A stretch of 34,084 bases of DNA, from NCBI GenBank assembly GCA_008632985.1, contig QPGO01000180.1, forward strand, positions 1 through 34,084. Reading direction: 5' to 3'. The translations under genes and the position numbers were made by a program. The notes under the pieces are model-generated. The model was not told the origin of the DNA. It made no database searches and was given only the letters and a program-made list of their open reading frames with translations. Numbering within the stretch: the stretch's first letter is position 1; the number at the start of each line of letters is the position of its first letter. This document shows, piece by piece, positions 29,088-33,290 of this stretch. Source of the stretch: Psammoneis japonica (lineage: Eukaryota).

Positions 29088-30278
29088 TTAAAACTTGCGA
29101 ACCTGTTCTTTGGAAAAGCCGAGTTCCTTCAGGACGCCACCAACTTCGCCTTGCTTGTAGTCTTTGGTTTTTGGTCCAGCCACGGCCGCCGTCATGCCGG
29201 GGCGTCCACAAACACACACCATGACTTTGCCTTCATGATCTGTCGGCTTGGGCAAAAGCTTTCGCAAGAGTTCTAGATTAGGAGTGGCTTCGAACTCGAA
29301 CGTCAAATCCTTAAAAAATTCCTTATTCGCGTGCTCCACAAATGGCTTGTGCACCAAACGACCACGATACTTCAACATGAGCTGCATCAACGTCGACCCC
29401 AATAGGAGATCTTCTTGGGTCTTGTTGAAGGTATACAACGAGACCTTGGCGTCCTTATCATTCTCCAAGATGAATTCAGTAGCCTGATAAATGGGAGTGA
29501 TGCCTGTTCCACCAGCAATCATGACGTATTCCTTAATCTTACCGGGTTCTGGGATAGTCCACTGCTTGTTGGGTCCCTTGACCTCAACCACATCTCCCTC
29601 TTTGAGACTGCGCAGCTTGGAACCCATTTTTGCGGATTCGCCGTAGCGCTTGACGAGCAGAGTTACCCGATTTCCAGAGGTAGCCGAGAGCGGATTGTAT
29701 GGCCTGGCCACCATCGAGGACTCGCCCTCAGCACCACTGGTAGCTGGTGCCTCCACCTTGGTACAGGAGCAAGTCCCATCACACTTGCAGCAGGAGCAAC
29801 ATCCGTTCGCGTTCTTGCGACAAGTGCATGTTCCAGGATCACACTTACAACACGAACAGCATCCAGTATTGACTGCTGCTGCTGCTTTCGTCGGTGCCAC
29901 CTGTTTGGGGCAATCGCAAGTTCCCTTACAGCTGCAGCAAGCACAGCATCCCGTTTCTGTCTTGGGGCAGCTGCAAGATCCAGGCGGACATTTGCAGCAA
30001 GCACAGCATCCACTTTCTTCACTTTGTACTCCCGAAACTTCAGCTCGAACCAAAACGTTTGCTACAGCGCCTTTTTCGTTCCAGTTGGATGGCAACTGCA
30101 AAGTAATCAGACGAGTGTCATGTGTATGTCGAACAGCGCCGATGCATTTTGCTTCCTGAAAGGTTGGCTTTTCGCATTTTGTGCAAACACTGCTGTCGCT
30201 GTTCAAACTCCACGAAGATGCCACAACTAGAGGGAGTGAGCGAACCGCTACGGAACGAGCAAACTGAGAGCTTGCCAT
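29088..30278 (-). CDS. NADH-cytochrome b5 reductase-like flavoprotein with internal Cys-rich repeat insertion
   Basis: HTHDTRLITLQLP, RPYNP (RxY flavin motif), LLVKRY...KMGS, VEVKGP, MIAGGTGITPIYQ, VCVCGRPGM and GEVGGVLKELGFSKEQVRKF. N-terminus resembles a mitochondrial presequence. Confidence 0.92.
   Translation of the reverse strand: MASSQFARSVAVRSLPLVVASSWSLNSDSSVCTKCEKPTFQEAKCIGAVRHTHDTRLITLQLPSNWNEKGAVANVLVRAEVSGVQSEESGCCACCKCPPGSCSCPKTETGCCACCSCKGTCDCPKQVAPTKAAAAVNTGCCSCCKCDPGTCTCRKNANGCCSCCKCDGTCSCTKVEAPATSGAEGESSMVARPYNPLSATSGNRVTLLVKRYGESAKMGSKLRSLKEGDVVEVKGPNKQWTIPEPGKIKEYVMIAGGTGITPIYQATEFILENDKDAKVSLYTFNKTQEDLLLGSTLMQLMLKYRGRLVHKPFVEHANKEFFKDLTFEFEATPNLELLRKLLPKPTDHEGKVMVCVCGRPGMTAAVAGPKTKDYKQGEVGGVLKELGFSKEQVRKF
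29763..30011 (-). repeat. Four in-frame GCCxCCxC-x(1-2)-GxCxC repeats (28 Cys)
   Basis: GCCACCKCPPGSCSC, GCCACCSCKGTCDC, GCCSCCKCDPGTCTC and GCCSCCKCDGTCSC. Confidence 0.95.
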
Positions 30279-30426
30279 TGTCTGCGAAGGATATGTTTTG
30301 TCTGCGAAGTGTCAGCGATGAGGCGATAACCGATAACTAAGATCCATCTTTATTCTGCCTTGTACGTTTGACCATAGATACTCGTTGAAATGGTGACCAT
30401 CCGTAACCCATCTTTGTTGCTTTTTC

Positions 30427-31134
30427 ATGGCTGTGCGTGCGAGGTGCGTCACTGCCACGTCATCGGCTCGTGGATGGCTACATAGGCTGGCTGAAGGAAT
30501 GAATTCGAGCATGAGAGGCCATGGCCATAGGATCGTCGTCGCGTCGTCTGTGGTATTCACCGTTGCTATATACCTCTGTTGCTACCAAACACTAGTTGTG
30601 CCAATGCTTCTAAAGTCGTTATTACCGTCCGTCACAAAGCGTCATACGGAACGCAAGCTGTTACAGACAGATCCGCGACATTTGTACCGCATCATTCAGG
30701 ATGTAGATTCCTACCAAGACTTCTTGCCGCTTTGCAGCAGCTCCAAAATTCTGAGACGGTCCAACTGCGGAAATTACTTTGATGCAACTCTGACGGTTGG
30801 AATGCCATCCGTCTTTACGGAAACATACACGTCTCGAGTATCTCTTGTCGAGAAACCGAGTTTTCTCTCTGTCGAAACGACAAGCATTCAAAGCTCGCTG
30901 TTTGATTCACTTCGCAGTAAATGGGTCTTGCGAGACGTCAGCCAAAGCAACGAGGCTGACGACGCATTCTGTGATGTAGACTTTGAAGTGGAAATGACCG
31001 TCAGTGATCCGGTTGTAGCAAGTGTTTTGGATAAGGTGTTGCGCGAAGTGGCGGGTCGCCAAGTGGAGGCCTTTGAAATGAGATGTCAACAGTTGTCTAG
31101 CAAACAGAGCAGGGGCAAGCTGATGAGTCAATGA
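30427..31134 (+). CDS. COQ10-like START/polyketide-cyclase domain protein (start uncertain; 30604 is an alternative)
   Basis: LYRIIQDVDSYQDFLPLCSSS, ATLTVG, ETYTSRV, LFDSLRSKW, CDVDFEVEM and VEAFEMRC. Confidence 0.85.
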   Translation: MAVRARCVTATSSARGWLHRLAEGMNSSMRGHGHRIVVASSVVFTVAIYLCCYQTLVVPMLLKSLLPSVTKRHTERKLLQTDPRHLYRIIQDVDSYQDFLPLCSSSKILRRSNCGNYFDATLTVGMPSVFTETYTSRVSLVEKPSFLSVETTSIQSSLFDSLRSKWVLRDVSQSNEADDAFCDVDFEVEMTVSDPVVASVLDKVLREVAGRQVEAFEMRCQQLSSKQSRGKLMSQ

Positions 31135-31650: not shown

Positions 31651-31855
31651 AAGATAATCACAAGTAAACTGGCGAAGCTTGGGATCGATGAAACGCGACA
31701 CGTGTTCGAGGCTGTCATGCATCGCAGCGGGATTAAGCAATATAAGACAATCACAAGCAAACTACTTTGCTTTCCGTTTTGACGGGCAAAGGCGAAGCCT
31801 CGAATCAATAAAACGAGACACGTTTTCGACGCTTTCATTCATCGCATCGGGGTTC
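31651..31855. repeat. Degenerate duplication of the 3' end of the FIST gene
   Basis: 31671-31735 (GGCGAAGCTTGGGATCGATGAAACGCGACACG...) resembles 31791-31855 (GGCGAAGCCTCGAATCAATAAAACGAGACACG...). 31651-31670 resembles 31743-31762. Confidence 0.7.
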
Positions 31856-33290
31856 GGGCATTCTTTGTTTTTGGGAGAGACAAAAATGCCAAAGACTGCT
31901 GTGAATGCCTGGACGGTCGCATCGCCTGTTCGAAAGACGTCCTCTGAGCTGTTTGACGCAAACGCCTTTGGACCAATCTCCCCTCCGGCGTAAAACCCAA
32001 GGCAAGGGACATGTGGAAAGTACTTGTGAAACTTGTTAGCATCTGCCATTCTTTTTCCTAGTAGAGAGCGGCCAGCAGTTGGTCCTCGACCGTTGCAACT
32101 AAACATGATTGCACCCAACACGTCAAGGCTCTCACGCGACGCATCAGCGGCCACACCCTTGATGCACTTGTCTACATCATCTACACACGATTTCCCTTTA
32201 AGCGCAAACAAGGCAATCTCGGTTCCCTCGGACAAAGTGATGTGGTCAAGATCTCCAAAAAGATTGATTTCGTTGTCAAGGACCTCAAAGTCATCAACCA
32301 GCTGGAAGTTATCATCGGGACTACTTCGCACACCTAGGTACGTCATGTCGTTCGCTACAAGGTTTCCTAGAGAAGAGAATGGTACTGCCAACCCTTCCTC
32401 GTCTCGTACAGACCTAATTGCAAGGGTGGCGTCTTCATTGAGCATGTGTCCGGCTTCCTCTGCACGGTGAGGAGGTGCGGCAATCGAACCAACAAACAAG
32501 CGTTGCTGGGATAAATTGCCCAGCCCTCGAGATACAACACTTCGTAATGGCACATTTCCACCCATGGCCACCCCAAATACACCTCCAGTCACCTCGAAAA
32601 TGTGTGTATTGGATTCTTGTGGCGAACTGATATGGCCACTGTCGCACACGCCTCCTATAACTATGAGTCCGGAAACTGTCGTTGCAGCTGGTCAACAAAA
32701 TCATCAATGTCGTCAGGAAGGTCAAAACAGCAGTACACAACAAATGCCTTCCAGTACGACCTAACGCTTGATTTTTCTGCAAGAGGAGTTGCGCCTTGAA
32801 GGCTCTGTACCAGATTAGCTATATTCAGCTCGCCTTGCTGGCTGAAGGTAAGAAACTGAGTATCCGGACACGACGCCAACATGAGCGACACGCCACTCGA
32901 CGACTCTACGGTCTCTCCAATGTTGACTTGAATATCAGCTGATGTCACGCTTAGCATGGCTGTATCACGTGGCAGGCGCTCTCCCCAATCCATCAAAGAC
33001 TCCACATGCCTTTGGTGCTGCAAAGATCCGTCTTGACAAAATGCCAGGGCCAGATTCGGGGGGCCACGAATCTTTTCAAGAGCTTCGAGAAGCATGACCG
33101 ATTCCGGAACATGACGACGTGTGTGGGGATCCCAGCTTGCGGCTGCACTAAACTCGGGTCCAATCATCAATCGAGGGTACTCCTTGGTGACATAATACAT
33201 ACGACGACACGAGGTACCGAATCGCGATGAATCTTTCACGTTGAAGAAAGATACAACATTCATAATCACGTCACAAGGAATCGAATCCAT
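31762..33290 (-). CDS. F-box plus FIST-domain protein (FBXO22-like architecture); one apparent frameshift near 32665
   Basis: F-box-like MDSIPCDVIMNVVSFFNVKDSSRFGTSCRRMY. FIST-C motifs GAIMFSCNGRG, CLGFYAGGEIGP and FTAVFGIF. A frame change restores FPD-IVIGGVCDSG. Confidence 0.82.

Follow-up and report, generated by a model that had tools for sequence, protein, structure and literature searches.

A metallothionein-like 14-cysteine di-module nested in the FAD-binding barrel of a cytochrome b5 reductase-type enzyme from Psammoneis japonica

We report a cysteine-rich module placed in the FAD-binding barrel of a reductase from the diatom Psammoneis japonica. By direct observation, the module is present and coding at a defined position of an intact reductase fold, is conserved in related proteins and is labile in copy number. 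On balance, its sequence pattern favors a metallothionein (MT)-like metal-thiolate cluster domain, built from 14-Cys di-modules and carried on an Mcr1/CBR2-like, mitochondrial-type reductase. Our full-text literature search turned up no paper on b5 reductases with a Cys-rich or MT-like insert, and this pairing of a flavin enzyme with a probable metal-binding module has probably not been described in print.

The gene lies on contig QPGO01000180.1, in the window, by which we mean the whole 34,084-nucleotide stretch analyzed. It is a single-exon, stop-free reading frame on the minus strand (29088..30278, 396 codons plus stop) whose translation of 396 aa reads as a b5 reductase-type FAD/NAD oxidoreductase with a Cys-rich insert. 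Homologs align with it all the way from N-terminus to C-terminal ...KF and cover up to 100% of the query. Behind an N-terminal extension (residues 1-40, 30159..30278, minus strand as for all features below), the AF2 model places the first three strands of the FAD barrel (residues 41-81, 30036..30158), in the fold of b5 reductases, at residues 41-50, 55-66 and 72-81 with pLDDT of 84-98. Pfam PF00970 (FAD_binding_6, E 6.5e-07, 30.1 bits against a cut-off of 21.1) recognized residues 187-240 (29559..29720), which form the C-terminal half of the FAD-binding domain, and its match spans only positions 44-97 of the 99 in the profile; the modeled strands 41-81 together with Foldseek recovered the barrel's first half, giving the six-stranded FAD barrel. 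Downstream lies a Rossmann-type NAD(H)-binding domain (residues 253-367, 29178..29522; PF00175, NAD_binding_1, E 4.8e-15, 56.6 bits, cut-off 22), marked by the motifs G-G-T-G-I-T-P and C-G-R-P-G-M. The flavin-binding motif R-P-Y-N-P (residues 192-196, 29691..29705) was identified by conservation and falls inside the FAD_binding_6 match; across the whole subfamily alignment its Asn replaces Thr/Ser. Among 102 sequences, Y194, P196, G257, G259 and P262 are invariant, while R192, C357 and G358 are conserved in at least 90%.

Structural comparison points the same way. Most of the reductase core is modeled by AF2 with pLDDT above 90, b5 reductases in the PDB match the host by sequence with E down to 2.8e-15, and the best Foldseek matches are all b5 reductase domains (E of about 1e-16 to 1e-17, TM 0.72-0.83 on target). 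The host is thus, as far as sequence and model can tell, a complete cytochrome b5 reductase-type FAD/NAD enzyme, and Pfam, PDB and Foldseek matches alike bear out an earlier sequence-only reading that had called it an NADH-cytochrome b5 reductase. The PDB and Foldseek matches also include the 2Fe-2S-bearing NqrF, phthalate dioxygenase reductase and benzoate dioxygenase reductase, and a Cyt-b5 domain (PF00173) is present in homologs P0086-P0090. With the mitochondrial-branch b5 reductases (fungal Mcr1, the plant 'NADH-cytochrome b5 reductase-like protein') the protein shares the two-domain FNR-like fold, the R-x-Y motif, the G-G-T-G-I-T-P NADH motif, the C-G motif and the C-terminal ...KF; named plant and fungal b5 reductases are 35-41% identical to it over the part C-terminal to the insert. 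It differs from them in 85 additional residues with 28 Cys, in R-P-Y-N instead of R-P-Y-T/S, and in belonging to a separate algal subfamily, for which a 50%-identity library contained only 12 representatives at E <=1e-30.

The N-terminal extension is basic, includes a moderately hydrophobic 15-mer and continues into C-x2-C-E-K-P. Of its first 25 residues two are basic and none is acidic, hydropathy over 15 residues peaks at 1.36, and AF2 assigns the extension a pLDDT below 50. The 37 full-length subfamily rows, defined by a Met start and an HTHDT-type motif, mostly show a similar pattern. Basic residues followed by a hydrophobic stretch also open Mcr1, for which passages of PMC11653698 describe a weak presequence, then a hydrophobic anchor, with an outer-membrane or intermembrane-space location; in the b5 reductase family, according to the same passages, location depends on a lipid or anchor. 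By analogy, residues 1-40 may form a weak mitochondrial presequence plus anchor, and the reductase would be mitochondrial. Should the protein face the oxidizing intermembrane space, disulfides would compete there with metal thiolates.

The insert occupies the beta3-beta4 hairpin, between model strands 72-81 and 188-194, the latter carrying R192-P-Y-N-P196. An N-side linker (residues 82-89, 30012..30035) leads into di-module 1 (residues 90-125, 29904..30011), followed by an Ala-rich linker (residues 126-138, 29865..29903), di-module 2 (residues 139-174, 29757..29864) and a C-side linker (residues 175-187, 29718..29756) that is as short as about 6 residues in homologs P0004 and P0011. Each di-module consists of two 7-Cys units with 14 Cys in total. 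The four units fit G-C-C-x-C-C-x-C-x(1-2)-G-x-C-x-C, and the Cys block (residues 90-172, window positions 29763-30011) packs 28 Cys into 83-85 residues, while the remaining 311 residues contain just 5 (binomial P of at least 28 Cys at this background rate, 6e-29). The translation thus agrees exactly with the earlier description of four 7-Cys repeats in two pairs around an Ala-rich linker, and the flanking model strands confirm that the block lies in frame between the first FAD strands and RPY. At the same site canonical relatives have a short loop, as had been claimed and as outgroup rows P0043 and P0100 and the PDB b5 reductases show. The insert is 33% Cys (28/85), is otherwise rich in K, T, G, A, P and S, and lacks F, Y, W, H, L, I and M; together with its CC, CxC and CCxCC clusters, this composition justifies the term metallothionein-like, with neither aromatic residues nor His. 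AF2 gives the Cys units a pLDDT of 62-71 and the Ala-rich linker 43-53, and draws a few beta-bridges between paired units, a profile that would be expected for two separately folding, metal-dependent modules.

Across 20 aligned di-modules all 14 Cys are invariant, and P18, G23, P37 and K38 of the di-module are conserved in at least 90%. The unit consensus is C-C-x-C-C-x-C-x(3-4)-C-x-C and units always occur in pairs, which identifies the 14-Cys di-module of about 38 residues as the building block. At the DNA level TRF found one 2-copy array with 77% matches; the four DNA units have diverged, so the block is not a recent slippage product. In six pairwise codon comparisons, pN was 0.15-0.25 in the insert versus 0.27-0.35 in the core, with pS saturated at 0.73-0.93. 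Every aligned Cys remained Cys (28/28 or 42/42), 10-17 of them written with an alternative Cys codon. From these comparisons the insert is a translated module under purifying selection, more constrained than the reductase core.

Of 236 other proteins retrieved by homology search, 10 have the module at this alignment position; so do 5 of 80 metagenome or metatranscriptome loci, all among the close relatives (5/6, L001-L006, versus 0/74 distant ones). Besides the window there are thus 15 carriers, either proteins or transcript contigs, with 2, 4 or 6 units and 14 to 42 Cys, always as 14-Cys pairs. The protein of the dinoflagellate Polarella glacialis, known from genome, MMETSP and EukProt transcriptome sources, has 4 units; the other carriers are on contigs of 1.0-2.1 kb, a length consistent with transcripts. 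Two further expectations of the sequence-only reading were borne out: the same 14-Cys pattern is kept in orthologs from several dinoflagellates, and the segment is retained in transcripts of relatives such as P. glacialis. Its proposal to look for the insert in other diatoms fared differently, since the only named diatom ortholog, that of Odontella aurita, which is also the nearest, is without it, and conservation is therefore not located in other diatoms. The closest homolog of the window's protein reaches at most 61% identity, and a collection of 15 billion proteins contained no exact entry for it.

The insert is missing in 33 of 49 subfamily rows. On the tree, insert state must change 13 times, and well-supported branches enforce at least 6 of these changes; an AU test on the core tree rejects a single insert clade (p = 1.95e-05). 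As insert-bearing forms are not one clade, the insert was repeatedly lost or resized; apparent remnants persist in P0022 (a ...G-C-P-K-Q-E... tail) and P0024 (4 Cys). Sequence comparison thus portrays a dispensable and labile insert, with 0, 1, 2 or 3 di-modules depending on lineage. In only 6 of 17 cases does the nearest di-module belong to the same protein, which precludes a general claim of independent internal duplications. Both A-type units of the window share an extra residue that the other 18 A-type units are without, one hint in the sequence of di-module duplication within a protein.

Searches for relatives of the module outside this subfamily came back empty. The insert alone hit 0 Pfam families at E <=10, with no MT family model and no Fer4 or other Fe-S model among them, and the PDB gave 0 matches to the insert sequence or a di-module profile at E <=10. 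Neither Foldseek nor VIA-align wide found a fold match to the di-module model, and the ESM Atlas gave no match for the module. Among 5.8 billion proteins of 51-165 aa, a search for a stand-alone module yielded 1 candidate, of which 0 scored; against proteins of 217-693 aa the insert region yielded 40 candidates, the sole scorer being P0004, itself a reductase. The di-module profile gave 601 pattern matches in prokaryote genomes and 589 in viral contigs, with 0 confirmed by tblastn in either set, blanks that low-complexity masking may weaken. Composition filters of HMMER and BLAST may likewise hide Cys-rich matches, and the blanks of the sequence searches are accordingly weak either way.

The proposed metal-thiolate function draws on likeness to the modular MTs. 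The insert shares with gastropod AbiMT4, Cryptococcus CnMT1/2 and tunicate MTs a Cys content near 30%, the lack of aromatics and the CC, CxC and CCxCC motifs (PMC11645667, PMC7216689), and with modular MTs generally an organization in tandem, self-contained modules whose number varies by lineage (PMC11645667). The same three motifs appear among the MT family motifs listed in the relevant part of PMC7216689, and passages of PMC11645667 present variation in module number as typical of MTs and binding capacity as proportional to repeat number. In contrast to modular MTs, the insert sits inside an enzyme domain and matches no MT model, and its metal binding is predicted from sequence. Nor does it belong to MTs in the strict sense, being nested in a 396-aa enzyme instead of forming a small free protein, and matching no described MT sequence family in Pfam or the PDB. 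Under the metal-thiolate reading, di-modules would be grafted on the hairpin tip between beta3 and beta4 in the FAD-binding barrel, two of them in the window's protein, and each would fold around soft metal ions, either Zn/Cd or Cu(I). The membrane-associated reductase would thereby gain a local metal-binding capacity that rises with di-module number. The sequence-only reading proposed possible roles in metal reduction, buffering or redox/metal sensing, and these stay putative. As close orthologs manage without the insert, the module would be an accessory to the NADH-FAD electron path, which can run without it; a coupling of the module to the flavin is conceivable.

A more ambitious reading, unlikely in our estimation, is that of an NADH-driven metal reductase with a built-in, copy-number-tunable thiolate trap for Cu, Cd, Hg and Ag. 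The Cys module, tethered only a few residues away from the strand with the flavin-contacting R-P-Y motif, would feed captured soft metal ions to the flavin or keep the reduced product, e.g. Cu(I), and the number of di-modules in a lineage would go up or down as trace-metal conditions shift. Flavoreductases with a tethered small module offer a parallel. The mercuric reductase MerA carries an NmerA domain, a flavoreductase linked to a Cys-ligand module, and a flavoreductase is likewise joined covalently to a small acceptor module in Ncb5or and nitrate reductase (cytochrome b5) and in NqrF and phthalate dioxygenase reductase (2Fe-2S). In these enzymes a module of known fold is fused to the N- or C-terminus in fixed copy number, whereas the Psammoneis module is nested in a FAD-barrel hairpin, has no fold match and ranges from 0 to 6 units among relatives. 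Reduction of metals or metalloids driven by b5 reductase is reported in PMC12746419, in which yeast overexpressing the enzyme makes silver and selenium nanoparticles.

The same family of tethered enzymes suggests that the module could be a one-electron acceptor, an Fe-S or rubredoxin-like iron center fed by FAD in place of the fused cytochrome b5 or 2Fe-2S domains, a reading that we regard as doubtful. A C-x2-C-x2-C-x3-C spacing, which resembles the 4Fe-4S ferredoxin motif, occurs within 18 of the 20 A-type units, and the obligate pairing of units resembles that of motifs in 2x[4Fe-4S] ferredoxins, which have two. One-electron carriers are the usual partners of this enzyme family, whose members are often fused to an acceptor; moreover, the C-side linker of down to about 6 residues before the RPY strand implies that the module may sit near the flavin. 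However, an obligatory cofactor is not expected to vary among 0, 2, 4 and 6 units or to vanish at least 6 times, 7 Cys per unit are invariant instead of 4, and the A-type units of the window itself have x4 in place of x3. The gap of about 9 residues between paired motifs, in a pair of 38 residues, would be too short for a ferredoxin fold, in keeping with the lack of any Fer4 or Fe-S match in Pfam and of any fold match.

We give a small probability to the block being a multiply S-acylated (palmitoylated) 'cysteine string' that fastens the reductase to a membrane. Adjacent-Cys runs such as those of the insert are classic acylation sites, as in cysteine-string protein and SNAP-25, b5 reductases are membrane-anchored, and a varying number of units would be tolerated. 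But conservation is as strict for the spacing and for the Pro, Gly and Lys positions as for the Cys, which points to a defined fold, and an N-terminal hydrophobic segment is already present. Known acylated Cys strings also differ from this charged insert, which has Lys, Asp and Glu between its Cys and no hydrophobic or aromatic residue. Slimmer still is the chance of a metal-free, disulfide-knotted structural knob or thiol/disulfide redox buffer. Mcr1-like targeting, if correctly inferred, could put the protein in an oxidizing compartment, and the few modeled beta-bridges between paired units would suit such a knot. Against it, vicinal CC pairs without a hydrophobic core, as found in the insert, are unusual in disulfide-rich domains and typical of metal-thiolate clusters; neither by sequence (Pfam) nor by fold (Foldseek, VIA-align) did any disulfide-rich domain match the insert, and an FNR-type flavin site is not known to have a redox-active disulfide that could recycle the block.

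Very little credence remains for a block that is missing from the mature protein as a spliced intron or 'exitron', or that is a neutral low-complexity expansion. Ten in-frame GT..AG pairs can be drawn mechanically around it and 255 nt is an intron-like length, but all 28 Cys codons are kept as Cys while 10-15 of 28 use the alternative Cys codon, pN is lower than in the core at saturated pS, the DNA units have diverged and the homologous block occurs in transcript-derived sequences of relatives. Finally, an origin of the insert Cys from Tyr codons by local TpA-to-TG/CA hypermutation, suggested by low TpA observed/expected ratios in the window (0.39) and the insert (0.30), is refuted by the matching 14-Cys pattern in dinoflagellate orthologs and is further at odds with an intact reading frame under purifying selection that retains 7 Tyr, including the invariant Y194. 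The sequence-only reading was right to reject such an artefact, although the 'normal TA content' that it ascribed to the gene does not hold in absolute terms (observed/expected 0.45).

With the metal-thiolate cluster as the preferred reading, the module is an unusual case of a domain inserted in a beta-hairpin and then repeatedly lost. The natural series of 0, 2, 4 and 6 units would provide a ready dose series for relating capacity to function, and unit counts in metatranscriptomes could mark the metal regime. If the metal-reductase reading were true, it would add a new enzymatic route of metal redox cycling in marine dinoflagellates and diatoms and a eukaryotic, b5 reductase-based counterpart of the tethered Cys ligands of mercuric reductase. 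In the part of PMC7216689 that treats these groups, MTs are predicted in only one dinoflagellate and one diatom. Dinoflagellates and diatoms dominate marine primary production and trace-metal cycling. Its invariant Cys, a constraint above that of its host and its being welded into a flavoreductase make the module a concrete, cloneable metal-binding candidate, which may help these algae, at a membrane surface, to bind Zn, Cd, Cu or Hg and perhaps to reduce them.

The cysteine block lies within a minus-strand gene (29088..30278) consisting of one uninterrupted open reading frame of 396 codons. Pfam recognized an NAD-binding domain (PF00175, residues 253-367, E = 4.8e-15) and the second half of a FAD-binding barrel (PF00970, residues 187-240, profile positions 44-97 of 99, E = 6.5e-07), and the closest solved structures by sequence were NADH-cytochrome b5 reductases and the reductase fragment of nitrate reductase (E from 2.8e-15). 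An AlphaFold2 model computed from 102 aligned relatives reached a mean pLDDT of 80.9, mostly above 90 in the enzyme core, and Foldseek matched it to b5 reductase structures over the whole target (TM-score on target 0.72-0.83, E ~1e-16 to 1e-17). The gene thus encodes an entire enzyme of the b5 reductase type, the family that the sequence-only reading had named. Barrel strands 1-3 occupy residues 41-50, 55-66 and 72-81 of the model, and strand 4 (188-194) carries R192-P-Y-N-P196; the whole algal subfamily has R-P-Y-N-P instead of R-P-Y-T/S-P, together with a conserved H-T-H-D-T-R motif. Many members, insert-bearing or not, also share a cysteine in a C-E/D-x-K-P motif just ahead of the barrel and a further one at the start of the first strand. 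In the window's protein these cysteines are residues 32, 35 and 45 (window about 30144-30185).

Between strands 3 and 4 lie 106 residues, in contrast to the short hairpin of canonical members, so that alignment and model both bear out the earlier placement of the insert between the first FAD-domain strands and the RPY motif. Four 7-Cys units (residues 90-174) form two pairs, di-module 1 (90-125) and di-module 2 (139-174), with an Ala-rich linker (126-138) between them. This is the arrangement first read from the sequence, and the interval given then, 29763-30011, corresponds exactly to G90-C172. The 85 block residues include 28 cysteines, whereas the other 311 residues of the protein have only 5 (P = 6e-29). 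The insert is 33% Cys, followed by K, T, G, A, P and S, and is devoid of aromatics, His and large aliphatics.

Relatives were sought among 5.8 billion proteins (93 matches) and, by exhaustive HMMER search, among 1.84 billion cluster representatives (12 at E up to 1e-30). A Cys-density scan of 237 fetched proteins, the window's own included, detected the module in that protein and 10 others, with four units in P0002, P0004 and P0008 and two in P0003, P0011, P0013, P0023, P0025, P0031 and P0096; alignment placed it at an identical position in all carriers. P0068, also picked by Cys density, has an unrelated N-terminal Cys patch. JGI metagenome records yielded 80 loci, of which 5 of 6 close relatives and none of 74 distant ones carried the module: four units each in L001 and L002, six in L006, at least six in L003 and at least three in L004 (both on contigs missing the 5' end), and none in the close relative L005. 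Units were paired without exception, and across 20 aligned di-modules all 14 cysteines were invariant, with P18, G23, P37 and K38 at least 90% conserved. A search for the insert in other diatoms had been suggested. The named insert-bearing ortholog is that of the dinoflagellate Polarella glacialis (P0002; sources were genome, MMETSP and EukProt transcriptomes); the diatom Odontella aurita (P0010), the only named diatom source, has the insert-free form, as do the dinoflagellates Crypthecodinium cohnii, Gymnodinium smaydae, Yihiella yeosuensis and Heterocapsa triquetra. Another P. glacialis protein (P0243, 1224 aa) opens with the same 371-aa insert-bearing reductase minus its last residue; the ~850 residues that follow are unrelated, which probably reflects either a run-on gene model or a tandem array that includes a second locus.

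An origin of the cysteines from Tyr codons by TpA mutation was rejected, in agreement with the sequence-only reading, because orthologs of other organisms hold the same cysteines and the gene retains 7 Tyr, invariant Y194 among them. The accompanying remark that the gene has normal TA content holds only in relative terms, since its TpA observed/expected ratio (0.45; insert 0.30) exceeds that of the window (0.39) but is low in absolute terms. Window-wide (1-34084), TG (1.35) and CA (1.41) are in excess, CG is at 0.78 and TpA is strongly depleted.

Six pairwise codon comparisons of the window with transcript contigs gave saturated pS (0.73-0.93), and pN was higher in the enzyme core (0.27-0.35) than in the insert (0.15-0.25). 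No aligned cysteine was replaced (28/28 or 42/42 kept), with the alternative Cys codon used at 10-17 of them, so that neither an untranslated intron nor a neutral repeat can account for the block in these lineages. The block can be bracketed by ten in-frame GT..AG pairs, so its alternative removal from mRNA in the window's own organism is formally conceivable, if very unlikely. We regard it as highly probable that the module is real, translated and selected. The four DNA units of the window have diverged from one another, and TRF reports a single 2-copy array (29901-30018, period 60, 77% matches) covering only the two units of di-module 1. Both A-type units of the window, one class of 7-Cys unit, have an extra residue (x4 spacing) absent from 18/18 other aligned di-modules; with the tandem repeat, this hints at internal duplication or concerted evolution within the lineage.

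An unrooted core tree was built from 56 rows after excision of the insert. On it the 16 carriers were scattered and clustered no more than shuffled labels. Their distribution requires 13 state changes, and well-supported branches force at least 6 of these; the Odontella sequence was sister to the window's protein (SH-aLRT 98). A tree grouping all insert-bearing rows was rejected by the AU test (delta lnL 346, p = 1.95e-05). The economical reading of these sequences would be that the module arose once and was then repeatedly lost or resized, since the module is alike in position, pattern and pairing wherever found. Two insert-free proteins have apparent remnants where the insert would lie: P0022 a ...S-G-C-P-K-Q-E... 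tail, and P0024 a 4-Cys stretch, C-P-C-P-Q-C. This would agree with an ancestral module that was later lost. Gains via recombination are possible because the tree is unrooted.

The CC, CxC and CCxCC motifs of the module match those listed for metallothioneins in PMC7216689, as the sequence-only reading had anticipated. Metallothioneins also share its variable repeat number, with metal capacity proportional to the number of self-contained repeats (PMC11645667). No match to the insert was found in Pfam (E up to 10) or, by sequence and profile, to insert or di-module in PDB; a di-module model (mean pLDDT 71) had no fold match, and ESM Atlas returned nothing usable. Likewise, there was no stand-alone copy among proteins of 51-165 aa, no other host among those of 217-693 aa and no confirmed copy in prokaryote genomes or viral contigs, although composition filters blunt all these blank searches. 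The module thus appears to lie outside every described family searched. Full-text literature searches found no description of a b5 reductase with such a module, and the novelty is that a b5 reductase and a metallothionein-like modular Cys domain, each of a known kind, are combined in one protein. Overall, the original observation was confirmed and extended, and its interpretation supported in part, for module, host, conservation and metallothionein-like composition.

In the window's protein and most of 37 tabulated, the N-terminus is basic, without acidic residues, and precedes a moderately hydrophobic stretch. This resembles the "weak presequence plus hydrophobic segment" of yeast Mcr1 (PMC11653698), and the nearest named relatives beyond the subfamily are fungal "NADH-cytochrome b5 reductase 2" and plant "NADH-cytochrome b5 reductase-like protein". 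By analogy, we infer that the enzyme would reside at the outer membrane of mitochondria or in their intermembrane space. Start codons 148 bp apart (intergenic 30279-30426) separate the reductase from a divergent 235-aa ORF (30427-31134, plus strand) with a Polyketide_cyc/START-type domain (PF03364, E = 5.3e-14). That family includes the mitochondrial coenzyme Q-binding protein COQ10; if COQ10-like, the two would form a head-to-head pair of mitochondrial redox/quinone-related genes, which might be regulated together. A 295-aa ORF (31762-32649, minus strand) has a FIST_C domain (PF10442, E = 4e-11).

The last Cys unit is only ~6 residues from the R-P-Y strand in some homologs, so that electron transfer between flavin and module may be within reach. 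Two bolder readings therefore stay open: the module could be a tethered Fe-S-type acceptor, for which the C-x2-C-x2-C-x3-C spacing embedded in each unit also speaks, or the enzyme could be a metal reductase carrying its own thiolate trap. Metal or metalloid reduction driven by b5 reductase is reported for engineered yeast (PMC12746419). We lean slightly toward metal-thiolate buffering. Each di-module would fold around a metal-thiolate cluster, and such metal-dependent folding would explain the middling AlphaFold2 confidence of the units (pLDDT 62-71; low for the linker), as AlphaFold2 sees no metal. In summary, an intact NADH/FAD reductase bears one to three 14-Cys di-modules at its beta3-beta4 hairpin tip, which are under tighter conservation than the enzyme itself although many lineages do without them; the module would be accessory to catalysis, its metal capacity set by the number of di-modules.
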